This document shows positions 3,348-40,571 of a DNA stretch of 50,460 nucleotides, piece after piece. The notes beneath the pieces are model-generated. The model made no database searches. It worked only from the letters and a program-made list of their open reading frames with translations, and was not told the origin of the DNA. Every line of letters starts with the position of its first letter. The stretch's first letter is position 1. This stretch comes from Candidatus Saccharimonadota bacterium (lineage in GTDB: Bacteria > Patescibacteriota > Saccharimonadia > Saccharimonadales > Saccharimonadaceae). A program made the translations under genes and the position numbers. The stretch covers positions 1-50,460 of the forward strand of contig JAQGGY010000020.1 in NCBI GenBank assembly GCA_028289095.1, written 5' to 3'.

Positions 3348-5360
3348 ATGGATCACTCGCATCATGCCGAACATGAGCAGCACGATCACGACAAGCACGC
3401 CGGCCATTCTGTGGCAATGTTCAAAGATAAGTTCTGGTTATCCCTACTACTGACGGTACCCGTACTTGCGTATTCTGAAATGATCCAACACTGGTTTAAC
3501 TTTGCGCCCCCGAGTTTTGTCGGTTCAGTATATGTACCATTTATTGTTAGTACCATCATTTTCTTTTACGGCGGTTTGGTATTTATAAAGGGCGCACTAG
3601 GCGAAATAAAAGCAAAGCTGCCAGGTATGATGACACTCATAAGTTTGGCAATTATCACCGCCTACGTCTATAGCGTCGCGACCCAGTTTTTCATAGAGGG
3701 TGATGGTTTCTTTTGGGAATTAGCAACTTTAGTAACCATTATGTTACTAGGTCATTGGCTTGAAATGGCGTCAGTGGCTAAAGCTGAGAATGCACTTGAT
3801 GCTATCTCAAAGCTACTACCCGACAAAGCCGAAAAGCTTGTAAATGGCAAGCCGACACAGGTGTTAGTGAGTGATCTGAGTGTTGGCGACCTGGTTCTAG
3901 TACGACCTGGTGCAAGTATACCCGTTGATGGTGTAGTTGTAGGCGGTAGCTCATCGGTCGATGAAGCCGCTATCACTGGCGAGAGTAAACCCGTGAATAA
4001 AGGCGTTGATGATGAAGTTGTTGCTGGTACGGGTAACCAAGACGGCTCATTGACCGTCAAGGTTACAAAGCTTGGTCAAGATACGGCACTTGCCGGGATT
4101 ATGCGGCTTGTCGCCGAAGCTCAAAGTTCGAAATCTAATGTGCAGATGCTTGCGGATCAAGCGGCGTATTATCTGACACTCGTCGCAATTGTTGCCGCTA
4201 TCGCTACATTTATTTTTTGGCTGATTGCTAAAGATGCCGGATTTGCTTTAGAGCGGTCTGTCGCTGTTTTAATTATTGCTTGCCCGCACGCATTAGGGCT
4301 TGCGATACCCTTGGTCGTATCGATATCTACTACGCTATCGGCGAAGAATGGCTTGCTGGTCCGTAAACGACTTGCTCTTGAAGCCGCGCGTAAGTTGGAT
4401 TGGGTGCTATTTGATAAGACAGGAACTCTGACAAAAGGAGAGCACGGGGTTACTGATATTTGGGCTACAAAAGGCTACACAAAGGATGGTATTTTACAGT
4501 TGGCGGCTAGCCTTGAGCAAAATAGTGAGCATATCGTCGGTAAGGGCATAGTAAAGAAAGCTGAGGAGCAACATGTTCTGTTCGACAAACTAGCTAATTT
4601 CAAAGCGTTGCCAGGTTTGGGCGTGCAAGGTACATTACATCATGGTAAAGAAGTGTATATTGCAGCCAGCTACCGTTATATTGAGGAGAACAAACTGACC
4701 GTCCCTGCGGATATTGCCAAAGTGGTCAAGCAGGCTGCTAAAGAAGGCAAGACTGAAGTGTATTTAATCACGAACAATAATGTTATCGGCGCATTGGGTC
4801 TGGCGGACATGGTCCGCGAGCAGTCAAAGCGGGCGATAGCTTCATTAAAGAAAATGGGTATTAAAACGGCGATGATAACTGGCGACTCGGACGAGGTTGC
4901 GGCATATGTATCGAAACAGCTTGGATTAGACCAGTATTTTGCTGAAGTCAAACCTGAAGATAAGGCGGCAAAAGTTAAAGAGTTGCAGAAAAATGGACAA
5001 AAAGTTGCTATGGTTGGCGACGGTATAAACGATGCCCCTGCACTTACGCAAGCTGACATCGGCATAGCCATCGGCGCTGGTACGGATGTTGCTATCAAGT
5101 CGGCAGACATAATCTTGGTGAGAAGCGACCCACAAGATGTCATAAAGGTGATTAACCTTTCAAAACGGACCTATAGCAAGATGGCTCAGAACCTGCTTTG
5201 GGCGACTGGCTATAACTTATTCGCTATTCCTTTGGCTGCTGGCGTTCTATATAGTGCGGGCATAGTATTAGCTCCTGCACTCGGTGCTGTTCTGATGTCC
5301 GTATCTACGGTAGTTGTTGCACTAAATGCTCAACTTCTGCGAAGAGCAAAGTTAACTTAA
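3348..5360 (+). CDS. copB: P1B-type heavy-metal (copper) translocating ATPase, CopB-like with His-rich N-terminus
   Basis: 670 aa. His-rich MDHSHHAEHEQHDHDKHAGH, CPH in TM6 (IIACPHALGLAIP), DKTGTLT phosphorylation site, TGES, MVGDGINDAPAL hinge. The start is 1 nt after the DUF305 stop. Confidence 0.92.
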   Translation: MDHSHHAEHEQHDHDKHAGHSVAMFKDKFWLSLLLTVPVLAYSEMIQHWFNFAPPSFVGSVYVPFIVSTIIFFYGGLVFIKGALGEIKAKLPGMMTLISLAIITAYVYSVATQFFIEGDGFFWELATLVTIMLLGHWLEMASVAKAENALDAISKLLPDKAEKLVNGKPTQVLVSDLSVGDLVLVRPGASIPVDGVVVGGSSSVDEAAITGESKPVNKGVDDEVVAGTGNQDGSLTVKVTKLGQDTALAGIMRLVAEAQSSKSNVQMLADQAAYYLTLVAIVAAIATFIFWLIAKDAGFALERSVAVLIIACPHALGLAIPLVVSISTTLSAKNGLLVRKRLALEAARKLDWVLFDKTGTLTKGEHGVTDIWATKGYTKDGILQLAASLEQNSEHIVGKGIVKKAEEQHVLFDKLANFKALPGLGVQGTLHHGKEVYIAASYRYIEENKLTVPADIAKVVKQAAKEGKTEVYLITNNNVIGALGLADMVREQSKRAIASLKKMGIKTAMITGDSDEVAAYVSKQLGLDQYFAEVKPEDKAAKVKELQKNGQKVAMVGDGINDAPALTQADIGIAIGAGTDVAIKSADIILVRSDPQDVIKVINLSKRTYSKMAQNLLWATGYNLFAIPLAAGVLYSAGIVLAPALGAVLMSVSTVVVALNAQLLRRAKLT

Positions 5361-5362
5361 TT

Positions 5363-5544
5363 CAAGAGGGGTATTTTATCCAAGAATTATCAGAATTACT
5401 AAATATAAAAGGTAAAGCAGCCATTGTAATTGGTGGCGCTAAGGGTATCGAGTAGGAATAGTCGCTCTGTTCCTTGCACGTGATATATCTAACTATATGA
5501 CGGGTAGTCAAATCGTTGTTGATGGCAGTGCATTACTGAGGTGA
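5363..5544 (+). pseudogene. Remnant of a short-chain dehydrogenase/reductase (SDR): N- and C-terminal scraps only
   Basis: One frame reads ..LNIKGKAAIVIGGAKGIE*, the Rossmann GxxxGxG start of an SDR. After two stops and a frame change it reads VALFLARDISNYMTGSQIVVDGSALLR* (5461-5544), the canonical SDR C-terminus. About 200 central codons are missing and there is no start codon. Confidence 0.65.
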
Positions 5545-5743
5545 TAATTACGTTAACAACATATGAATATGAGTGTTTTACGCCTAATCACTTCAGTAGA
5601 CTCCCTTCATGTAAATCGCTTTAACTTCGTAGCCTATGGCGCACCATTTCTATGCAATAAGACAATACACCTAATTGAGATAAGATTTATTTGCTAGAAT
5701 AGAAATGAAGTGAAACAAATTCTTATTAAGGGGAAAACATTAT

Positions 5744-6169
5744 ATGGCAACTATCAATCCATACGTTAATTTCAACGGGAATGCTGAAGAAGCCTTCAAT
5801 TTCTACAAATCTGTATTTGGTGGCGAGTTCACAATGATTGTACGCTTCAAAGATCTAGAAAGCTCTGAGTTCCCTGTACCAGAAAATGAAGCAGATAAAA
5901 TCATGCGTATTGTTTTGCCAATCGGTGGAAGTACTTTGATTGCCAACGATGTTCCAGAAAGTTTAGGCCCAGTAAGTGAGAATGAAAATAGATCTAAGAT
6001 ATCGGTCAACGTGGAAAGTCGTGAAGAAGCCGACAAAATATTTAACGGCCTTACGGTAGGTGGAACTATCGAAATGCCGCTTGGCGATAGCCCGTGGGGT
6101 ACGTATTTTGGGATGTTTAGGGATAAATATGGTATTGAGTGGACAGTGGAATTCAACCCAGGTGTCTGA
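5744..6169 (+). CDS. VOC-superfamily protein, PhnB-like (3-demethylubiquinone-9 3-methyltransferase domain type)
   Basis: 141 aa. INPYVNFNGNAEEAFNFYKSVFGGEF and WGTYFGMFRDKYGIEWTV are hallmark blocks of this family. GGGGAA RBS. Confidence 0.8.
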   Translation: MATINPYVNFNGNAEEAFNFYKSVFGGEFTMIVRFKDLESSEFPVPENEADKIMRIVLPIGGSTLIANDVPESLGPVSENENRSKISVNVESREEADKIFNGLTVGGTIEMPLGDSPWGTYFGMFRDKYGIEWTVEFNPGV

Positions 6170-22976: not shown

Positions 22977-23716
22977 TGAGCGGCATGCAAACAGCCCCCT
23001 ACCAAGATTTTGCGCGTGAGCATTTTGGGTTTGAATACGAAAATATCGACTTGTTGATTACTGCGTTGACACACCGTAGTTATGTCAACGAGCACAAAAA
23101 AAGTGTCAGCGAGCATAACGAACGATTGGAATTTTTAGGTGATGCAGTACTAGAACTGGTTGTGACCGACTATCTTTTTCGTCAGTTTACAGATGCCGAA
23201 GGAACGTTGACTAGCTGGCGCGCGTCACTAGTACGTACTGAAAGTATAGGCGAAGCGGGTGATAAATTAGGCTACGAACACTTACTGCGTATGAGCAAAG
23301 GTGAAAAGAACGGCAGCGTCCGGGCTAGGCAGCAGATTTTGGCAAATGCATTTGAAGCAGTTATCGGTTCGATCTATCTGGAGCGCGGCTATGATGACGC
23401 GGCGGTCTTTATTGAAAAGCACATCCTGTCAAAACTCGATACGATCCTAGCGTCGGGTAGCTGGCGCGATCCTAAATCACACCTTCAGGAAGTGTCGCAG
23501 CGAATTGATAATCACACGCCCGTATACAAGGTACTAGAAGAAGTTGGCCCTGATCATGACAAGATATTCACACTTGGAGTGTTCGTTGGTGACAAGTTGA
23601 TGGGTAAGGGTAGTGGGCCAAGTAAACAGACCGCCCAGCAAGTAGCGGCAAAGGCTGCACTGGAAACGTACGCAAAACAAACGAAACAGATTGACGCGAA
23701 CGCAAAAACAGTGTAA
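22976..23716 (+). CDS. rnc: Ribonuclease III
   Basis: NERLEFLGDAVLELVV is the RNase III signature, with a C-terminal dsRBD (GPDH.K.F...V...G.G.G.SK..A.Q.AA..AL). The start overlaps the Nudix stop (TAATG). Confidence 0.96.
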   Translation: MSGMQTAPYQDFAREHFGFEYENIDLLITALTHRSYVNEHKKSVSEHNERLEFLGDAVLELVVTDYLFRQFTDAEGTLTSWRASLVRTESIGEAGDKLGYEHLLRMSKGEKNGSVRARQQILANAFEAVIGSIYLERGYDDAAVFIEKHILSKLDTILASGSWRDPKSHLQEVSQRIDNHTPVYKVLEEVGPDHDKIFTLGVFVGDKLMGKGSGPSKQTAQQVAAKAALETYAKQTKQIDANAKTV

Positions 23717-23784
23717 ACTTGTTCAAGAACTAATAAAAATTCTATAATTAGATTTAAGAGTGAAGTAAAGGAAGTTTAAAGTTT

Positions 23785-24129
23785 ATGCTCGCAATTCGTT
23801 TGCAACGTGTCGGCCGTAAAGGATACCCAGTGTATCGTCTTGCCGTTCAAGAATCACAACGTCACCCATCAAGTGGTCGTGTAGTCGCCTATGTAGGTAG
23901 CTATAACCCACATACTAAGGACGCTAATGTCCAAGTTGAATTGGCACAGAAATATCTTGATAATGGCGCACAGCCAACACCTCGTGTCGTTAAACTGTTA
24001 AAAGACGCAGGTGTTAAGTTGCCTGATTGGGTTAAAGTAGGCGCACCAAAGACAAAGACGATTCGTAACGCAGAAAAACTACGCAAGAATCAGCCCAAAG
24101 AAGAAGCAGCCGAAGAATCAGCTGAATAG
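23785..24129 (+). CDS. rpsP: 30S ribosomal protein S16
   Basis: MLAIRLQRVGRKGYPVYRLAVQESQRHPSSGRVVAYVGSYNP is canonical S16. Confidence 0.96.
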   Translation: MLAIRLQRVGRKGYPVYRLAVQESQRHPSSGRVVAYVGSYNPHTKDANVQVELAQKYLDNGAQPTPRVVKLLKDAGVKLPDWVKVGAPKTKTIRNAEKLRKNQPKEEAAEESAE

Positions 24130-24145
24130 CACTTCCTTATATAAT

Positions 24146-24168
24146 AAAACGCCCGTCTAGGGCGTTTT
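24146..24168 (+). terminator. rpsP terminator
   Basis: AAAACGCCC-GTCTA-GGGCGTTTT is a 9-bp stem followed by a T-tract. Confidence 0.8.
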
Positions 24169-24183
24169 ATTATTTGGATAGGT

Positions 24184-24208
24184 AAAACCCCGCTACGAGA
24201 GCGGGGTT
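24184..24208 (-). terminator. Terminator of the high-GC minus-strand ORF
   Basis: AACCCCGCT-CTCGT-AGCGGGGTT (read on the minus strand) followed by TTTT. It lies 63 nt past the stop, and two further small hairpins (24212-24226, 24233-24249) sit in between. Confidence 0.7.
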
Positions 24209-24270
24209 GGTGTCGGATACGCCGACGCGTTTGCTAGATATTGTCTAGCGGCAAGGAGAAATCAGTAGGC

Positions 24271-24837
24271 TTAGCGGTTGCCGCTTGTCACTAGCTCGTT
24301 CTTGTGCATGTCGTGAGCGCGGTTGAGGGCAAAGCGAGCACGGTCTGCACCGAGCTTGACTGCCTTGTCAAAGCGCACGTCCGTAAAGGACAGTTCGGCA
24401 CGTGCCTGGAAAATCGCTTCTGCGAGACGCGTGCGACCGGTGGTGGCCGTGTCGACTGCGACGGTCGGGAAGAAGTGAATGGTCTTCTCGGCGATCTTGC
24501 GCGCAACGCTATCAGCGGCGAGCGTGGTGACGTTGGTGCTTTCGAGCGCCCACTGAGCCTGCTTGATGCGGAAGCTGACGGCTTCTGCTTCACGCTTCTT
24601 TTTGGTCTCGGCGGCGACCCGTTCGCGTTCAACGATCTTCGGATCTCTGACGGCACCGAGCAGCGGGGTTTGCCAGCGGATCGGCTGGGGCTTCTGGTGG
24701 TTCAGAACGGGGCGATTGCCGCTGTGTGCGTTTGCACGAGCATCGGCGTTCTGTGATGCTTTCTTCGCGCGCTTGATCCTGAGCTGCTCTTCGGCAGGCA
24801 GGAGGACGTCGCTCTTGTTATTGGGACCCTTAGCCAT
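24271..24837 (-). CDS. Hypothetical protein, compositionally foreign (about 62% GC), no recognisable domain
   Basis: 188 aa from ATG 24837 (MAKGPNNKSD...), with AGGAG 5 nt upstream. G/C-ending codons dominate. Own promoter and terminator. The ORF-track extension to 25017 runs into AT-rich promoter DNA and is rejected. Confidence 0.65.
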   Translation of the reverse strand: MAKGPNNKSDVLLPAEEQLRIKRAKKASQNADARANAHSGNRPVLNHQKPQPIRWQTPLLGAVRDPKIVERERVAAETKKKREAEAVSFRIKQAQWALESTNVTTLAADSVARKIAEKTIHFFPTVAVDTATTGRTRLAEAIFQARAELSFTDVRFDKAVKLGADRARFALNRAHDMHKNELVTSGNR

Positions 24838-24904
24838 GATTTCTCCTAATTTGGAATACCAGTAAACTGGCTGCTTTATCGGACCGTCCGACAATGTTGA
24901 ATAC

Positions 24905-24933
24905 ATAATAGCATATACGTTATAAAATGTCAA
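24905..24933 (-). promoter_or_regulatory. Near-consensus sigma70-type promoter for the high-GC ORF
   Basis: On the minus strand, TTGACA (24933-24928), a 17-nt spacer, then TATTAT (24910-24905). The predicted TSS is near 24898, giving a leader of about 60 nt. Confidence 0.55.
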
Positions 24934-24942
24934 TACCCTATG

Positions 24943-24958
24943 TGTGATTAGTGTCACA
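24943..24958. promoter_or_regulatory. Perfect CRP-type box TGTGA-N6-TCACA
   Basis: TGTGAttagtgTCACA, in the divergent promoter region between the high-GC ORF and the KH gene. It is embedded in a 9-bp stem CCCTATGTG/CACATAGGG. Confidence 0.55.
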
Positions 24959-25092
24959 TAGGGGCTGAAAGCCTTACGTAAACAATACAACATGCTACAA
25001 TGAGTAATGGAATACAACTAGGTAAAATTCATTTTCGTCGCATCAAGTGGGATAAATAAAAACGCACATATACTGTGACACAAGGAGGAATC

Positions 25093-25485
25093 ATGTCGAC
25101 CATCGACCAGCAATTTATAGAATATATCGTTAAGTCACTCGTCGGGAATCCTGATGACGTAACTGTCGAACGCATTATTGACGAAAAAGGTGTACTACTA
25201 ACGTTAACCGTCAATCCTGAAGATTTGGGACGTGTTATTGGAAAACGTGGTGTTACCGCACAAAGCCTACGGACGCTTTTACGTGCCTTGGGGACAAAAA
25301 ATAACGCGCGTTACAATTTAAAAATCGTCAATAACGACGACGAACACGAACAGTATACTGTTTCATCAGACTCACCAATCGTCGAGGCTGTGAATAACTC
25401 AACAGATACAACTGTGGATAATGCATCAAGTCTTGCAATTACTACTCGAAAAGAGCTTGCAGAACTAGATGATCTAGATATATAA
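25093..25485 (+). CDS. KH-domain RNA-binding protein (YlqC/UPF0109 family) with long C-terminal extension
   Basis: IVKSLVGNPDDVTVERIIDEKGVLLTLTVNPEDLGRVIGKRGVTAQSLRTLLRAL is the YlqC signature (GxxG = GKRG). AGGAGG lies 5 nt before ATG 25093. Confidence 0.85.
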   Translation: MSTIDQQFIEYIVKSLVGNPDDVTVERIIDEKGVLLTLTVNPEDLGRVIGKRGVTAQSLRTLLRALGTKNNARYNLKIVNNDDEHEQYTVSSDSPIVEAVNNSTDTTVDNASSLAITTRKELAELDDLDI

Positions 25486-25586
25486 TCATAAACAGTTCAG
25501 AACAACTCTTGAACTGCGAGAAATAGTACAGAAGACAGAAGCTTTTGCGAGCAACAATTACATAAATGTTGAGAGCTTTATATGTG

Positions 25587-25625
25587 TCACGAAATCAACC
25601 CACCTGAAAATGGTGGGTTTCGTGA
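25587..25625. terminator. Bidirectional hairpin between the KH gene and a convergent small gene
   Basis: TCACGAA(atca)ACCCACC-tgaaaat-GGTGGGTTTCGTGA forms a 14-bp interrupted stem, followed by TTTCT. Confidence 0.55.
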
Positions 25626-32046: not shown

Positions 32047-33021
32047 TTACTTTATCTCGAACGGATCCCCGTAGACGCTCCACTTTAGGGGTGTAGTTAG
32101 GGTAAGGTTACCTTCTTTTAGGAACTTGCGCTGAGCCGTTTCAATGCGTGTAACGTCCTCATGTGCAGCCTCCTTATTCATTTCTACAATTCGTTCGTCT
32201 AGGAATGTGTTCATATATGTTGTCACGTTCGCGTCCTGCGCTGGGGTTTTTGATTTATTTAAGGCGCGAGTACGGATACTCATCATTCCTTCGTAGCCAT
32301 GAACAACCGCAGCATCGTAGTAGGCAAACTGGCCAAGGACCGGCAAGCCGTCGGAAATCGCTAGATTTACTGATGGGTCAAAATATATACGATCGCGCTC
32401 TCTGTCTTGAGCTTGCTGGAAAAGAGGATCAGCTGCTGCCGCCTTCCAATCTGCGGTAAAACTAGGGTCAAGGCCGGCGTGGGTGTTATTAAAGGTCTTC
32501 TTGAGCGCAGGAATGTATTTAGCCAGCACGTTATTTGGCTTGACTGACGTGTAATATTCGACTAATTCAAGTAGGTCGCCGCACATATTGAGACTAGTAC
32601 AAAAACCGATAATACCAGCAGTGTATCCGCGACCGTCGCCGATGTCTTCGATGTATGCGTACTGGGCTTTCCAGTCCAGGGATGAGTTTTCTGCGCTAGA
32701 TATAAGCTTCATGGCGATTACTTTTTTTGCTGGATCACGCAAGGTTACATTCGTATTCGTAGGCATCGGTACCGATGAGGTAGATGATGGCGTAGGTTCG
32801 GGGAGGGTGGAAGTTTGATCAACTGTTGCGCTTGCGTGGACGGCTTTCATGCCTTGCTCTTCATTTGCAATGGGAGTTCGCTTGGATTCGAGCAGATTTG
32901 ACGAACGCGTCGAAGCGAAGGTATAACTTGCGATAACTATTGCGATGGCAGCGATTAATAATCCTATTGATAGGAATCGGCGGTGGCGGATGAAATCAAA
33001 TGCTTTTTGAAGGGTATTCAT
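32047..33021 (-). CDS. Glycoside hydrolase family 46 chitosanase with N-terminal membrane anchor/signal
   Basis: From memory it is near-colinear with Streptomyces N174 CsnA: SSAENSSLDWKAQY.YIEDIGDGRGYT.GIIGFC (catalytic Glu and Asp context), FQQAQ..ERDR.YFDP, LGQFAYYDA and LKW..YGDP. The N-terminus has a TM helix plus a Ser/Thr/Pro linker. Confidence 0.9.
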   Translation of the reverse strand: MNTLQKAFDFIRHRRFLSIGLLIAAIAIVIASYTFASTRSSNLLESKRTPIANEEQGMKAVHASATVDQTSTLPEPTPSSTSSVPMPTNTNVTLRDPAKKVIAMKLISSAENSSLDWKAQYAYIEDIGDGRGYTAGIIGFCTSLNMCGDLLELVEYYTSVKPNNVLAKYIPALKKTFNNTHAGLDPSFTADWKAAAADPLFQQAQDRERDRIYFDPSVNLAISDGLPVLGQFAYYDAAVVHGYEGMMSIRTRALNKSKTPAQDANVTTYMNTFLDERIVEMNKEAAHEDVTRIETAQRKFLKEGNLTLTTPLKWSVYGDPFEIK

Positions 33022-33316
33022 AAACGTGTCCTATTTAACTGTTAGTGCGCTGATGTTATCAATATTTAATTCGTGATTAACAGCTTAGCTACCGAGGGTG
33101 TTACAGGTACGGTCGAGTTAATGCTGATTACTGAAGGTATGGAGGTGAGGCTGTCTGTCGCTCCTATTATAGGGTGATATCTATCCCTTTGCAATGAGCT
33201 GAGAAAGATGAGCAAGAAAGGTATTTATGATTCGTTTAATCATAAAGGATTTTGGAACCCGATCTAAATTAAGTATAGAAAAAAGACCTAGAACTAATGG
33301 TCTGGGGCCTTTTTTA

Positions 33317-33332
33317 TGCCTGGGGTGGAGGG
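33317..33332 (-). repeat. Orphan copy of the tRNA-Gln 3' end (15/16 nt)
   Basis: TGcCTGGGGTGGAGGG versus TGgCTGGGGTGGAGGG at 33504-33519. It is preceded by a second copy of ATAGAAAAAAGACyTAGA (33275-33293 versus 33462-33480). No T-loop or anticodon arm is attached. Confidence 0.7.
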
Positions 33333-33465
33333 CTGGCGGTCGCTGTGCTTCCTATTTCCGCTTGCTGACAAAATGAGCAAGCTAATTTTGTTACACGGCG
33401 CTGCACGAACTCCCCGACTTTTGTTTTACAAAAGTATTCTGGGGTTCGATCCCGACCGAGCATAG

Positions 33466-33501
33466 AAAAAAGACTTAGATGAGATGACCTAAGTCTTTTT
33501 T
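33466..33501 (-). terminator. tRNA-Gln terminator (bidirectional hairpin)
   Basis: AGACTTAG-10 nt-CTAAGTCT, flanked by an A-run and a T-run, 2 nt downstream of the tRNA 3' end. Confidence 0.65.
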
Positions 33502-33503
33502 CA

Positions 33504-33578
33504 TGGCTGGGGTGGAGGGATTCGAACCCCCGAATGCTGGTACCAGAAACCAGTGCCTTACCACTTGGCGACACCCCA
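33504..33578 (-). tRNA. tRNA-Gln (anticodon CUG), CCA encoded
   Basis: Hand-folded cloverleaf: acceptor TGGGGTG/CACCCCA, D-arm GCC-AAGTGGTAA-GGC, anticodon stem CTGGT/ACCAG with loop TTCTGGT, T-arm GGGGG-TTCGAAT-CCCTC, discriminator G, then CCA. The U1-A72 pair and overall sequence resemble E. coli tRNA-Gln. Confidence 0.88.
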
Positions 33579-33671
33579 ATAGTGTCAATTGTTCGCGTTG
33601 TTGCGGCGTCAAATCATAGGTTTTTGGCAATGGTACCTATATAATTCTTGCCGTATCAGGATATGGCGGCT

Positions 33672-33695
33672 AGTGTCTTACCACTTGGCGACACC
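33672..33695 (-). repeat. Orphan copy of the tRNA-Gln 5' part (23/24 nt)
   Basis: agtgTcttaccacttggcgacacc versus agtgCcttaccacttggcgacacc at 33552-33575, exactly 120 nt away. The downstream sequence does not fold into a tRNA. Confidence 0.7.
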
Positions 33696-33809
33696 TCATC
33701 GCTCGTATCAAATTGTAACATTTATAGGTTGTTTGCTCAAGTAAGAAGGCTGCATTACTATCTCATAGTGTCGACATACATGCATTAATCGGATATAATT
33801 GTAGTACAG

Positions 33810-35399
33810 ATGGAGCCAGATGAAACCTATCCACTACACCCTGATCAAAAGGATCAAACCACGACGCCAAGTACGCCACCTGTTAACTCTACAGGCATCA
33901 CACCCCTCCAGCCACCGTCAACCTATAATCCGCCACAGAATACCGTGTCCACGCAGTCTGCTACGGTGCCGTGGTACTTACAGCCCTTAACAAAAACGAC
34001 GCAATCACCACTGACCTCGACCCAGACGCGGCCGTTTGTTCCGCGCGAACCATTACTACCAAAACCACAAAGGGAACAGTCGGTGGAGGCATCGGCTATG
34101 CCGTCAGTGGCGCCGCAATCGTCAGCAATTCAAACCGCGACACCTACTCCTTCGCTAGAGTCAAATAGTCTATTTGGAACGCAACCATTGCCACCCTTGA
34201 GGTCGCCGTATGCCAAGCCGTCGCAGCAGCAGTCGGTATATCGCCGACCGTCAGAATCAAATCCAGATCCTCAGCGAACCGCTTATCAACGTCCGCCTGT
34301 GTCCAAACAACAAGCACCGGTCTACCAACAGCCGCAAGCGCCCACACCCGCCAGTCAGGCGCCAAAGCCATTTTCGCAATTTGATGCAATAGTATCACCG
34401 CAACCAATGAATAGTAACCCACAGAATAAATCAAAAAAAATGCGACGGATCATTGGCATCGCAGTGGCCGTGCTACTACTTGGATTAATTGGCGTAGGGG
34501 TGTATTCATTTTTTAATAAATCAGGGTCGGACGATGCAACGCCGACATCGACGACTACTTCAAATGATGCCGTCACGAAGCGGCTCGAACGGGCGTTCGA
34601 CAAGCATCTGCAGACACGTTTTATCCGTCAGTCTTATGAACAGGTTGCGGATGGAATAAACACTGATGTCTTGAAGTTGGATACAACGAGTGACTTTACG
34701 GATCCATCGCAGCCAAAAAGCCATATTCATTATGATCTGCAAGCGGGCAGGGGTGACAATACTGTTAAGGGCGCTGGCGAAGTGATGATTTTAGGCAAGA
34801 ATGAATATTTCGGCAAATTATTATCACCTGTATTGTTCTATCAAGGCGATGAAGCTGCTAAGCCAAAAGAAAACCAGTGGTATAAAATCGCAAACGATGA
34901 CACGACGGGCGAAATGTTACTCGATCCTACGTCGTCACGGGCGGCGTTGAACAGCCCGCTTGGTGAATTGCCAGTAGGAAACTTTCAAGACACGACTCGA
35001 CAGGAATTAATGCAATTCATTGCAGGTCGTACAGTGTATGCGATTAAAAGTAGCAATGAAGTCACCGACGGCAAAGAAAAACTAACTCACTACAATATAG
35101 ATTTTAATGCCGGATCAGTCAGTGAGCTAAACAAAAAGATTGCCGATGCGATCGAACAAAAAGATGAGGCTATGATACCGACGTTTGCAGAAAATGATGT
35201 CAAAAATATGGAAATTTGGGTCAATAATAATTCAGGGCAAATAACGAAAGTTAAATATAACAGAGAATATTCTGGTACTGAAGATAATGCTACGCCAATA
35301 AAAGAAACAATTACGGTAGCGATTAGCTACCCATCGGACAGCTCATCGATAAAAACGCCCGAGGGTGCAATAGCTGGCCCTTGGGTTATTAAGCGGTAG
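33810..35399 (+). CDS. Hypothetical single-pass membrane protein (long P/Q/S/T-rich N-terminal region, extracytoplasmic C-terminal domain)
   Basis: 529 aa. About 205 aa of low-complexity P/Q/T/S, then a TM helix IIGIAVAVLLLGLIGVGVYSFF, then about 300 aa globular. No family recognised. Confidence 0.5.
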   Translation: MEPDETYPLHPDQKDQTTTPSTPPVNSTGITPLQPPSTYNPPQNTVSTQSATVPWYLQPLTKTTQSPLTSTQTRPFVPREPLLPKPQREQSVEASAMPSVAPQSSAIQTATPTPSLESNSLFGTQPLPPLRSPYAKPSQQQSVYRRPSESNPDPQRTAYQRPPVSKQQAPVYQQPQAPTPASQAPKPFSQFDAIVSPQPMNSNPQNKSKKMRRIIGIAVAVLLLGLIGVGVYSFFNKSGSDDATPTSTTTSNDAVTKRLERAFDKHLQTRFIRQSYEQVADGINTDVLKLDTTSDFTDPSQPKSHIHYDLQAGRGDNTVKGAGEVMILGKNEYFGKLLSPVLFYQGDEAAKPKENQWYKIANDDTTGEMLLDPTSSRAALNSPLGELPVGNFQDTTRQELMQFIAGRTVYAIKSSNEVTDGKEKLTHYNIDFNAGSVSELNKKIADAIEQKDEAMIPTFAENDVKNMEIWVNNNSGQITKVKYNREYSGTEDNATPIKETITVAISYPSDSSSIKTPEGAIAGPWVIKR

Positions 35400-35420
35400 A
35401 TCACTTTGCACATTAAAAAA

Positions 35421-35458
35421 CTCCTGGAGTGTGACAAAAAATCGTCACGCTCCAGGAG
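35421..35458. terminator. Bidirectional terminator between convergent genes
   Basis: CTCCTGGAGTGTGAC-8 nt-GTCACGCTCCAGGAG is a 15-bp stem (one G.U pair), with A6 upstream and TTTT downstream. Confidence 0.8.
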
Positions 35459-35464
35459 CGGCTT

Positions 35465-37144
35465 TTAGAGGTATTGGCCCGTAGTGTGTTCGACGGTGTC
35501 CATCGGCTTGATGGTGGGCGAAGAGCTATCCTTGTCCAGGATGCGTAGTACTGCATGTATGCGCTGACCTTTTTTGCCAGATATCCTAGCCCAGTCATGC
35601 GGATTTGTTGTATTTGGTAGATCTTCGTTTTCTTCAAACTCGGCATCGCAGGCGTTAATCAGATGCTGCAAGTGGATACCTTCTATGCCGGTGTCAATTT
35701 CGTCGAGTATAGAAGATTGTTTCGCGCGATCAACAATGTTTTGAATCATCGAACCCGAACTGAAATCCTTGAAGTAAAGATCTTCCTTGTCGCCTTTTTC
35801 GTAGGTCACTTCTATGAATTTGGTTCGCGATGACGTCGCATACATATGTTCGACGGTGCACTCGATCATCGATGTAATGCACGCTTGGCGATCACCACCA
35901 AACTCATCCAAGTACGATTTGTGAAGTGGCAGATCGGTGTTTAGATACTTAGCGAAGATATCGAGTGCGGCTGTTGCATCAGGACGCTCGATCTTTATTT
36001 TGATATCCAATCGTCCTGGCCGTAGAACGGCAGGGTCAATCAGCTCTTCACGATTTGACGCACCAATAACAATGACGTTAGACAAACCTTCGACGCCGTC
36101 TAGCTCTGTCAAAAGCTGAGGTACGATGGTTTTTTCCATGTCCGAACTGATTCCTGATCCACGGACGTGGAACATGGACTCCATTTCGTCAAAAAAGATA
36201 ACGACAGGGTGGCCCTCGCTACCTTTTTCGCGAGCACGCTGGAAAATCAAGCGGATATGCCGCTCGGTCTCGCCTACGTACTTATTCAGGAGCTCGGGCC
36301 CTTTCACGTTGATGAAATACGCTTTGGTGTCTGGATCGCCACTTTCGGCGGCTTTCTTTTTCGCAAGCGTACTAGCGATTGCTTTGGCGATCATTGTCTT
36401 GCCACAGCCTGGGGGTCCGTAAAGCAGTATGCCTTTTGGTGCCCGCAGCTGCATCTTTGCGTACATCTCAGGGCGCAGATACGGAAGCTCGACAGCGTCG
36501 CGTATTTTTTTCACTTGATTGGCAAGTCCGCCAATATCTTCGTAGCCGATATCGGGTGCTGCCTCGAGCATCAGGTCGTTCACTTCGGTCTTTGCTATGA
36601 CTTCAGTTGCGATGTTCAGTCGACTATTCACTACCAAAGAATCACCAGACTTAACTGATTTACTATCGATAGTACTTGTCAAAAGGACAACTCGTTCGTC
36701 ATCCGTATTGCCGGTAACGAGTGCACGGTTTGGCGACATAACTTCTTTGACAGTCATGATTTCGCCATGTTCTTCGAGGTTGAGTGCCTTGATGACGACC
36801 GATGAATCGTTGACCAACACTTGCTGTCCTGGTTGTAATTCGTTGACATCGATCGTTGGAAACACGCTGACGCGATGCAGCTGTCCACTCCTGCTGACAT
36901 CTACCATTTCTGGATCATCTGTCGTTCGCAGGAAATATGCGATTGCTGCTGGGCCCTTTGATTGGCTATCTAGGGCGGTTTTCATCGATACGATTGTGTC
37001 CCGCGCCTTTGTCAACATTTCCGTCTGATTGGCATTAATTCGAGCAAGGCTTTCATTTTTTTCATGCGCAATTTCCAGCTGTTTTGTAATCGGCAGGTGC
37101 CTGATATTTTCTGGCTGTTTTGTACTACCTTGTTCGTCACTCAT
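35465..37144 (-). CDS. mpa: Proteasome-associated AAA+ ATPase Mpa/ARC (coiled coil, OB domains, AAA module, C-terminal GQYL)
   Basis: 559 aa from ATG 37144 (GGAGG 8 nt upstream). Blocks: GPPGCGKTMIAKA, KGPELLNKYVGETERHIRLIFQRAREK, VIFFDEMES, VIVIGASNRE, LRPGRLDIKIKIERPD, NEDLPNTTNPHDWARISGKKG and the terminal TTGQYL. Confidence 0.92.
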   Translation of the reverse strand: MSDEQGSTKQPENIRHLPITKQLEIAHEKNESLARINANQTEMLTKARDTIVSMKTALDSQSKGPAAIAYFLRTTDDPEMVDVSRSGQLHRVSVFPTIDVNELQPGQQVLVNDSSVVIKALNLEEHGEIMTVKEVMSPNRALVTGNTDDERVVLLTSTIDSKSVKSGDSLVVNSRLNIATEVIAKTEVNDLMLEAAPDIGYEDIGGLANQVKKIRDAVELPYLRPEMYAKMQLRAPKGILLYGPPGCGKTMIAKAIASTLAKKKAAESGDPDTKAYFINVKGPELLNKYVGETERHIRLIFQRAREKGSEGHPVVIFFDEMESMFHVRGSGISSDMEKTIVPQLLTELDGVEGLSNVIVIGASNREELIDPAVLRPGRLDIKIKIERPDATAALDIFAKYLNTDLPLHKSYLDEFGGDRQACITSMIECTVEHMYATSSRTKFIEVTYEKGDKEDLYFKDFSSGSMIQNIVDRAKQSSILDEIDTGIEGIHLQHLINACDAEFEENEDLPNTTNPHDWARISGKKGQRIHAVLRILDKDSSSPTIKPMDTVEHTTGQYL

Positions 37145-40555: not shown

Positions 40556-40571
40556 TGTGAGTAAAATCACA
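40556..40571. promoter_or_regulatory. Perfect CRP-type box TGTGA-N6-TCACA upstream of the crp-like gene
   Basis: TGTGAgtaaaaTCACA. On the minus strand it abuts a CATAAT -10-like hexamer (40553-40548). On the plus strand its centre lies about 58 nt upstream of the TSS predicted from TATAAT (40609-40614), which has no usable -35. Confidence 0.6.

Follow-up and report, generated by a model that had tools for sequence, protein, structure and literature searches.

In the icaR mRNA of Staphylococcus aureus, an anti-Shine-Dalgarno (anti-SD) element in the 3′ untranslated region (3′ UTR) pairs with the Shine-Dalgarno sequence (SD) of the 5′ UTR, which blocks translation and leads to cleavage by RNase III. 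In the hok mRNA of plasmid R1, a fold-back between the 5′ tac and 3′ fbi elements keeps a stable mRNA inert until its 3′ end is trimmed. Here, we describe a gene whose mRNA is predicted to close in a comparable manner. It is a GC-rich open reading frame (ORF) on the minus strand, from an ATG at 24837 to a TAA at 24273–24271, in a stretch of 50,460 nt from Candidatus Saccharimonadota bacterium (contig JAQGGY010000020.1, positions 1 to 50,460; hereafter, the window). The window, with about 44% GC overall, is a piece of a Saccharibacteria (TM7) genome; the relatives of its rpsP product, 79–96% identical, occur only in Saccharibacteria/Saccharimonadia assemblies. The ORF lies antisense between rpsP (23785–24129, plus strand) and a KhpA-type KH gene (25090–25485, plus strand), both assigned by Pfam. 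It is probably a real, independently transcribed gene that belongs to a small, restricted and fast-evolving family found mostly in Saccharibacteria, and whose GC-richness is intrinsic and long-lived. The parallels with icaR and hok are drawn by analogy and are mechanistic, not homologous.

Pairing and folding of the mRNA

In the 3′ UTR of the ORF, 6 nt past the stop codon, there is an element (24254–24264, minus strand; UGAUUUCUCCU in the mRNA) that is perfectly complementary, in 11 of 11 nt, to the SD and start region of the same ORF (AGGAGAAAUCA, 24837–24847), with which it forms an inverted repeat. The ribosome-binding region (24838–24847, minus strand) is composed of AGGAG (24843–24847) and a 5-nt spacer, AAAUC. 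A conserved 3′ UTR complement of the mRNA's own SD, the feature expected of an icaR-type mRNA, was found in four genomes, since the 11 nt of the window have counterparts at the same offset in three of the related loci (which are given L numbers here): L081 (CAGGAGAAGA, 10 nt), L086 (9 nt) and L091 (ACAGGAGAAAAA, 12 nt). Beside the SD core, the pairing covaries among these genomes, with A:U exchanged for G:C and U:A for A:U, the 3′ UTR changing with the SD side. Pairings of the observed lengths were reached by 0–2 of 300 shuffles, and by none of 300 for the window. Shorter anti-SD elements, of 7 nt in L008 and 8 nt in L006, come after the stop codons of the ORFs that these loci have at the rpsP–KH junction. 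In both the minimum free energy (MFE) and the centroid folds, the SD/anti-SD helix closes the whole coding region, and a second, outer helix joins the UTRs.

As in icaR, the 3′ UTR of the ORF is thus complementary to its own SD, and the predicted closure of the mRNA would mask the ribosome-binding site. In contrast to icaR, the protein and the organism are unrelated, the complementarity is longer (9–12 nt) and starts 5–9 nt past the stop codon, and it extends from the SD core to just before the start codon. With hok, the mRNA shares a compact and unusually stable predicted fold, long-range pairing between its 5′ and 3′ parts and a masked SD. Nevertheless, the product is a soluble, hydrophilic and basic protein of 188 amino acids (aa), where hok encodes a hydrophobic toxin of small size, neither an antisense RNA partner nor an overlapping leader ORF is seen, and the gene is chromosomal and lineage-restricted. 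The length and hydrophilicity of the product do not fit a hok-type type I toxin–antitoxin system, and neither does the promoter scan, in which no antisense promoter was found.

The folding of the transcript is not limited to its ends. As a whole, it is more stable than dinucleotide shuffles (z = −4.0), and both strands fold better than their shuffles. When compared with synonymous-codon shuffles, which keep the protein, the codon set and the GC content, all 13 of the family coding sequences examined are more stable (z from −0.6 to −3.3, mean −2.14), while control genes have a mean z of +0.03 (five flanking genes of the window and six from contigs of 54–60% GC; Mann–Whitney p = 8e-5). Both this excess folding and the SD/3′ UTR pairing are new observations on the ORF.

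The signals that would produce this transcript are all present. An earlier reading of the window from its letters alone (the sequence-only reading) had described a TTGACA-17-TATTAT promoter, an AGGAG 5 nt before the ATG, and a terminator with a 9-bp stem and a T run, and all of them are as it described. The sigma-70-type promoter (24905–24933, minus strand) has its −35 box, TTGACA, at 24928–24933 and, after a 17-nt spacer, its −10 box, TATTAT, at 24905–24910; it matches the consensus at 11 of 12 positions and its −10 is TG-extended. The extended −10 (TGnTAnAAT) is kept in L081, L086 and L091, and the −35 in L001 and L008. The predicted 5′ UTR of about 50–60 nt (24848–24898, minus strand; its start is inferred from the position of the −10 box) has a small hairpin at 24879–24891, and the order of a hairpin followed by GCACC...SD is common to L081, L086 and L091. 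These three loci also share the layout of two small hairpins that can be seen in the 3′ UTR sequence (24210–24228 and 24233–24249, minus strand). The intrinsic terminator hairpin (24186–24208, minus strand; AACCCCGCU / AGCGGGGUU, with 9 bp and a short run of U after it) is part of the MFE fold and is kept in L001, L008, L081, L086 and L091.

On this basis, expression would start at the near-consensus promoter, which diverges from the KH (khpA-like) gene. Pairing of the 3′ UTR with the SD region would close the mRNA into a panhandle and restrain expression, a coding region over-folded relative to its codon content would restrain it further, and codons rare for the genome would provide a third restraint. 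Selection for a stable, translationally masked mRNA would, we infer, keep the synonymous sites G/C-rich. What may finally be made is a small, cytoplasmic, strongly basic protein with a disordered N-terminal tail rich in Lys, Arg and Ala, and a domain of about 120 aa that forms a helical bundle.

A stronger version of this reading, which we find rather unlikely, holds that it is the RNA that is under selection, as a hyper-stable mRNA of about 700 nt that stays silent until a trigger arrives and forms an island that mimics a transferred gene. In that case, the strong promoter would feed an mRNA silenced by its 5′–3′ closure, masked SD and rare codons, which would be released by, for instance, 3′ trimming or contact with the host. 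The synonymous sites would have stayed G/C-rich for tens of millions of years in the AT-leaning, reduced genomes of these epibionts, and the transcript might double as an antisense barrier inside the rpsP–khpA–trmD cluster.

Two further observations touch the pairing element. Three near-identical copies of (CA)AGGAG(A/G)AATCA are found at 24252–24264, 24835–24847 and 25081–25095, which correspond to the anti-SD in the ORF 3′ UTR, the ORF ribosome-binding site (on the opposite strand) and the KH ribosome-binding site, respectively. Judging from this likeness, the 3′ UTR element could in principle pair also with antisense read-through of the KH leader. In addition, an rnc gene lies two genes upstream, which is probably coincidental.

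The protein and its family

Patterns of substitution indicate that the GC-rich ORF is a genuine protein-coding gene. In a close set of relatives (L056, L087, L090 and L097), its sense frame has a dN/dS (ratio of nonsynonymous to synonymous divergence) of 0.16–0.28 and zero stops. The other five frames have ratios near or above 1, or stops, with the exception of the mirrored antisense frame, which shares third positions with the sense frame and holds 4–7 stops. Indels in close relatives are whole codons and keep the frame, homologues begin at the same aligned Met as the window ORF, and protein homology persists where the coding DNA can no longer be aligned. The coding sequence (24271–24837, minus strand; 188 aa plus stop) matches the hidden Markov model (HMM) of the family with E = 1e-45.

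Islands of high GC in genomes richer in AT often encode structured RNAs, and it could be argued that what functions here is such an RNA, non-coding or antisense, in which the ORF is incidental: both strands out-fold their shuffles, the excess folding is family-wide, and another frame is open by chance. Yet the purifying selection is specific to one frame, the indels preserve it, and homology is retained at the protein level beyond the reach of DNA alignment. Moreover, the G+C content of third codon positions (GC3) exceeds that of first positions (GC1), which in turn exceeds that of second positions (GC2), a confident protein fold is obtained from co-variation, and the coding region shows no net covariation at the RNA level. 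No Rfam family reached the gathering score, and relaxed thresholds gave none either (best E 0.1). A purely non-coding role is hence highly improbable, while a dual role, as protein and as RNA, is possible.

An AlphaFold2 model built with a 17-sequence alignment has a mean predicted local distance difference test (pLDDT) score of 82 and a predicted template modelling score of 0.60, with pLDDT above 90 over most of residues 70–180; it supersedes a poor single-sequence model (pLDDT 65). Helices are predicted at residues 66–98, 111–125, 135–147 and 157–186 of the window protein. The N-terminal part is rich in Lys, Arg, Ala and Gln and is modelled mostly with low confidence, except for one helix. 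This agrees with the sequence-only reading, which had expected a basic, disordered N-terminus followed by helices. The window product has an isoelectric point (pI) of 10.5 and a net charge of +14; across the family, these values range over 9.1–11.8 and +4 to +27. Conserved positions are Q93, A97, F123, G163, A167, L171 and A174, and no conserved residues of catalytic type are visible in the family alignment. By eye, no hydrophobic segment or signal peptide is apparent in the window protein, for which no predictor was run.

That the product matched no recognized family was borne out by wider searches. Scans of the protein and all 17 family members against Pfam, PHROGs, NCBIfam and PADLOC gave no significant match, although three members match Phage_NinH at E = 0.013, short of the threshold. 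A sequence-profile search of the PDB (best E 0.35) and Foldseek with the model (best E 0.067 in the PDB and 0.11 in BFVD) returned only generic helical bundles, none of them significant. Because of its charge, its disorder and its neighbourhood, the product most likely binds nucleic acid (of the nucleoid, an RNA or the ribosome) rather than acting as an enzyme, although this is the weakest step of the argument. There is a functional analogy with Hc1 of Chlamydia, the tails of actinobacterial HU proteins and Lsr2, with which the product shares a high pI, Lys/Arg/Ala-rich disorder and a small size; in contrast, there is no similarity to them in sequence or fold. Our best guess is a nucleic-acid-binding protein made from a masked, stable mRNA.

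The family is small and diverges quickly. Searched exhaustively with phmmer, 1.84 billion representative proteins yielded 10 remote relatives of 134–211 aa (E 9e-9 to 7e-4), which share the layout of a basic N-terminal and a helical C-terminal part, and a profile search added six further members. A word-indexed homology search recovered only the query, and the family has no conserved stretch of 7–10 residues. By tblastn, there were zero matches in 50,697 phage and 72,556 plasmid records. None of the phmmer relatives could be tied to an actinobacterium.

Most members occupy the same place in the genome. Among 80 related loci fetched by rpsP, this gene and the KH gene are adjacent, co-directional and usually 135–310 nt apart in most relatives that have both, as the sequence-only reading had supposed; in about 17 species representatives the gap measures 540–2900 nt and is often GC-rich. 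Family HMM matches lie antisense within the gap in L001, L011, L035 and L056 and, in the same placement, in L081–L091 and L096, with L095 having its match beside rpsP. Nine of the 10 phmmer relatives were looked up: five are at the rpsP–KH junction, three are elsewhere and one (P0008, in L095) is beside rpsP, on a contig that ends before the KH side and has the same arrangement at rpsP. By protein (given P numbers here), P0002, P0003, P0012, P0013, P0015 and P0017 lie antisense between the KH gene and rpsP, and P0014 and P0016, like P0008, are next to rpsP and arranged likewise, on contigs that do not reach the KH side. The rpsP products of carriers are 79–98% identical to that of the window. 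In effect, every member whose surroundings can be identified as Saccharibacteria is antisense at the rpsP–KH junction.

The three members found elsewhere are on contigs of 54–60% GC or on unidentified ones. Two of them, P0011 (L092/L093) and P0006 (L098), adjoin groES/groEL on contigs of 60% and 54% GC, respectively, and their genes exceed even these surroundings in GC (GC3 0.94 in L092 and 0.88 in L098). In both loci (L092 1–2739; L098 2143–6483), the family gene is divergent from groES–groEL and upstream of an arginase- or amidinotransferase-like gene, and L098 also encodes a bifunctional PGI/PMI-type isomerase. The third, P0005 (L094), precedes, on a contig of 1.2 kb, a co-oriented gene that encodes an Lsr2 DNA-binding domain (PF23359; L094 759–1121).

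Composition, descent and transfer

The composition of the ORF is strongly atypical. In 300-nt windows, GC is 0.57–0.62 across 24150–24900 and 0.37–0.47 on either side, in agreement with the jump that the sequence-only reading had counted in 60-nt segments, whose values were reproduced (0.62 for 24301–24360, 0.62 for 24601–24660 and 0.28 for 24901–24960). The ORF has a GC of 0.60 and GC1/GC2/GC3 of 0.64/0.46/0.71. Its third positions, described in that reading as richer in G/C than those of neighbouring genes, are indeed outside the range of 25 long genes of the window (GC3 0.43 ± 0.036, maximum 0.51; z = 7.8), a reference drawn from the 50-kb window and not from the whole genome. No 188-codon stretch of these genes exceeds a GC3 of 0.57, and the ORF protein recoded with the codon preferences of the window has a GC3 of 0.43. 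The coding region consists almost wholly of codons that are rare for the host genome. They tend to end in C (C3 0.46, G3 0.26), yet GAA is preferred over GAG and GGT over GGC, unlike the usual high-GC actinobacterial pattern. As had been suggested, the additional ORFs that overlap it in other frames result from the high GC of the sequence. Translational selection for C-ending codons was rejected as a cause, since rpsP has a GC3 of only 0.32.

Compared with a related locus without the gene, L002, the ORF is part of an indel. By blastn, window positions 23700–24188 align to 646–1136 of L002, and 24915–25599 to 1143–1808; in L002, whose rpsP product is 96% identical, the blocks are separated by only 6 nt. 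The resulting cassette of 726 nt (24189–24914) spans the terminator, 3′ UTR, coding sequence, 5′ UTR and −10 box, and contains no other ORF. L003 also lacks it, and alignment scores for a cassette remnant in L002 and L003 are within the range of shuffles. The sequence-only reading is supported insofar as the ORF lies in an indel that is absent from these two loci.

The sequence-only reading had gone on to propose a recent, unameliorated acquisition from a high-GC donor, such as Actinobacteria or their phages. Its GC3 z score of 7.8, its absence from L002 and L003, and the Lsr2-like gene beside the member in L094 are all in line with this, as are the facts that Saccharibacteria live on Actinobacteria and that the Lsr2 family is typical of Actinobacteria and their phages. 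Like transferred genomic islets, the ORF combines atypical composition, rare codons and an indel with its own promoter and terminator. Nevertheless, it differs from such islets in having no donor homologue or mobility machinery and in an anomaly that is family-wide over saturating synonymous divergence. Neither the 1.84 billion representatives nor the phage and plasmid records hold a homologue tied to Actinobacteria, and the preference for GAA and GGT argues against such a donor. The cassette is not flanked by an integrase, a tRNA or clear direct repeats, the border repeats being short and at chance level; no tRNA occurs within about 9 kb, and there is no clear target duplication. Instead, diverged Saccharibacteria have a gene of the same family and composition at this junction, likewise antisense and with conserved UTRs, an observation that the reading itself had named as one that would refute it. 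In close pairs, moreover, the synonymous divergence (dS) of the ORF equals that of the flanks, and GC3 stays at 0.71–0.94 although the flanks are synonymously saturated. Recent transfer is consequently largely refuted, and we consider it very unlikely.

The sharp GC boundaries in a metagenome-type assembly could also be the mark of a chimera, in which a high-GC fragment was joined into a Saccharibacteria contig. The chance of this is negligible: the same architecture recurs in many independent assemblies (ENA, JGI, NCBI and Logan), one homologue is on seven contigs from different samples, and the boundaries fall at the terminator and promoter that relatives keep.

Comparison of close carriers shows that, within clades at least, the gene and its flanks are inherited together. 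Between L087 and L056, the ORF has a dS of 0.22, within the 0.12–0.42 of the flanks, and a nonsynonymous divergence (dN) of 0.061, against 0–0.013 for the flanks. Across the close trio, ORF dS likewise matches flank dS. By these estimates, the ORF co-diverges with its flanks, while the protein evolves at least fivefold faster. Between the window and other carriers, flank dS is greater than 1.2 or cannot be computed because of saturation, and a dN/dS of 0.3–0.5 together with saturated dS is sufficient for the observed protein identities of 20–40%. L001, for instance, carries a family member of 228 aa; its DNA aligns with that of the window through 24260 and again from 24869, with about 75–80% identity at the UTR ends of the cassette, which is about the level of the flanks, while the coding sequences cannot be aligned.

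Every member examined has a GC of 0.61–0.69 and a GC3 of 0.71–0.94, against backgrounds with a GC of 0.44–0.50 at the junction and 0.54–0.60 at the groES locus. Since the flanks are saturated among carriers, a passive relic of an old transfer should have decayed toward a GC3 of about 0.43; one that started at 0.9 would, by our estimate, have fallen to about 0.63 or lower over the distance between the window and L081. The GC-richness is thus a stable property of the gene and not the fading trace of a foreign donor. A GC-raising process specific to the locus, such as a hotspot of biased gene conversion, was rejected as the main cause, given that the gene is equally GC-rich at another locus and that pilin-like genes at the junction have ordinary GC.

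Several observations weigh against an inherited gene with intrinsically high GC, a masked mRNA and a nucleic-acid-binding product. Its spread is patchy, with a recognizable member in only 4 of about 47 species representatives that have the rpsP–KH pair, and the gene has been lost from, or is absent in, some close relatives. The SD/anti-SD pairing is absent from distant members, being confined to the subclade of the window and, in weaker form, to L008 and L006. Synonymous shuffling does not preserve dinucleotides across codons, so the excess folding is evidence and not proof, and RNAalifold with four close sequences found no net covariation for a specific structure of the coding region (covariation term +1.25). 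Polarized counts of W→S and S→W changes are not significant (31 changes; implied equilibrium GC3, GC3*, of about 0.66 in the ORF and 0.51 in the flanks). Charge and disorder are the sole properties of the protein that point to nucleic-acid binding, and neither the PDB nor BFVD holds a significant match to its fold. Finally, beyond very close pairs, the identity of the ORF does not follow that of the flanks (Spearman −0.20).

This last result keeps allelic exchange among Saccharibacteria as a live rival. According to it, the cassette is a replaceable allele, spread by transformation and homologous recombination through its flanks or ends, and a pool of sources in higher-GC relatives would give it a permanently foreign and hyper-divergent look. 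The window protein is closer to those of L096 and L088 (flanks about 80% identical) than to that of L081 (flanks about 94%), the coding sequences of the window and L001 are unalignable although both UTR ends align, other cargo such as pilin-like genes and orphan ORFs is found at the junction elsewhere, and some members are at another locus in contigs of 54–60% GC. By contrast, in the only close set, ORF dS matches flank dS, which is consistent with co-inheritance, and the dN/dS and dS values given above produce identities of 20–35% with no replacement. In addition, a donor pool alone would be insufficient, as the gene is richer in GC than its background even in the higher-GC contigs. On balance, we judge exchange to be a minority possibility, well behind inheritance of a gene with intrinsically high GC.

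The rpsP–KH junction and the significance of the gene

The junction holds other genes in other Saccharibacteria. The rpsP–KH gaps of L023 (about 4407–4994), L030 (about 4489–5028) and L032 (about 5030–6029) contain genes of ordinary GC, encoded on the plus strand, whose products begin like type IV pilins (FTIVELLIVIVVIGILA). The junction is therefore a site of insertion or variability in general, and the GC-rich gene is only one of its occupants. Another family, of small antisense orphans with 87–146 aa, lies on the minus strand of the gap in L004, L021, L049 and possibly L006; its members have the motif ...C(V/I)K(Y/F/W)L(A/C)(H/Y/R)G..., a GC3 of 0.44–0.66 and no Pfam match, and the ORFs of L004 and L021 fold better than synonymous shuffles (z about −1.9). 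The gap of L011 (1088–3348) is a 2.26-kb island of up to 75% GC with three antisense orphan ORFs: the family member (207 aa, GC3 0.87), an acidic one (206 aa, GC3 0.81) and a basic one (74 aa, GC3 0.99), the last two having no Pfam match and no relative in other loci. In L096 (3566–3871), an orphan ORF of 101 aa (GC3 0.65) stands between the family gene and rpsP and has, of all the genes tested, the largest folding excess over synonymous shuffles (z = −3.3). The junction ORFs of L008, L012, L018, L021, L032 and L004 were considered as hidden members of the family and set aside, as they gave only weak matches to the basic N-terminus, which is of low complexity; they have no Pfam matches either.

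Between the promoters of the ORF and the KH gene, outside the indel, lies a perfect palindrome of CRP/FNR-type consensus, TGTGA-N6-TCACA (TGTGATTAGTGTCACA, 24943–24958). It is about 57–60 nt upstream of the predicted transcription start of the KH gene, whose TG-extended −10 is TGCTACAAT (24993–25001). The palindrome is also present in L001 (5265–5280), L002 (1172–1187), L003 (4482–4497), L081–L086 and L091. As it is kept in the close clade of the window with or without the cassette, it probably regulates the KH/rimM/trmD operon. A second perfect site occurs at 40556–40571, and matches of this type across the window are not above chance (4 found vs. 1.8 expected).

On a larger scale, gene orientation flips at about 33000–35500, being mostly plus up to about 32 kb and mostly minus from about 35.5 kb, and a tRNA (33507–33578) sits at the flip. 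The GC-rich ORF is among the few minus-strand genes of the plus-strand block and may be oriented head-on to replication.

A search of the literature for GC-rich genes in Saccharibacteria found nothing relevant. A 17-point jump in GC together with a GC3 z score of 7.8 would, by the textbook, point to recent transfer; here, it is a long-standing trait intrinsic to the gene. Composition-based calls of transfer, and claims of gene flow from host to epibiont in Saccharibacteria, would misclassify such a gene. The family consists of unstudied, fast-evolving basic proteins, mostly from a major group of ultra-small epibionts and in a neighbourhood of ribosome biogenesis, and the fold predicted for it with confidence is without known relatives. 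The SD/3′ UTR pairing and the excess folding make it a test case for selection on mRNA structure as a force driving local base composition in bacteria.

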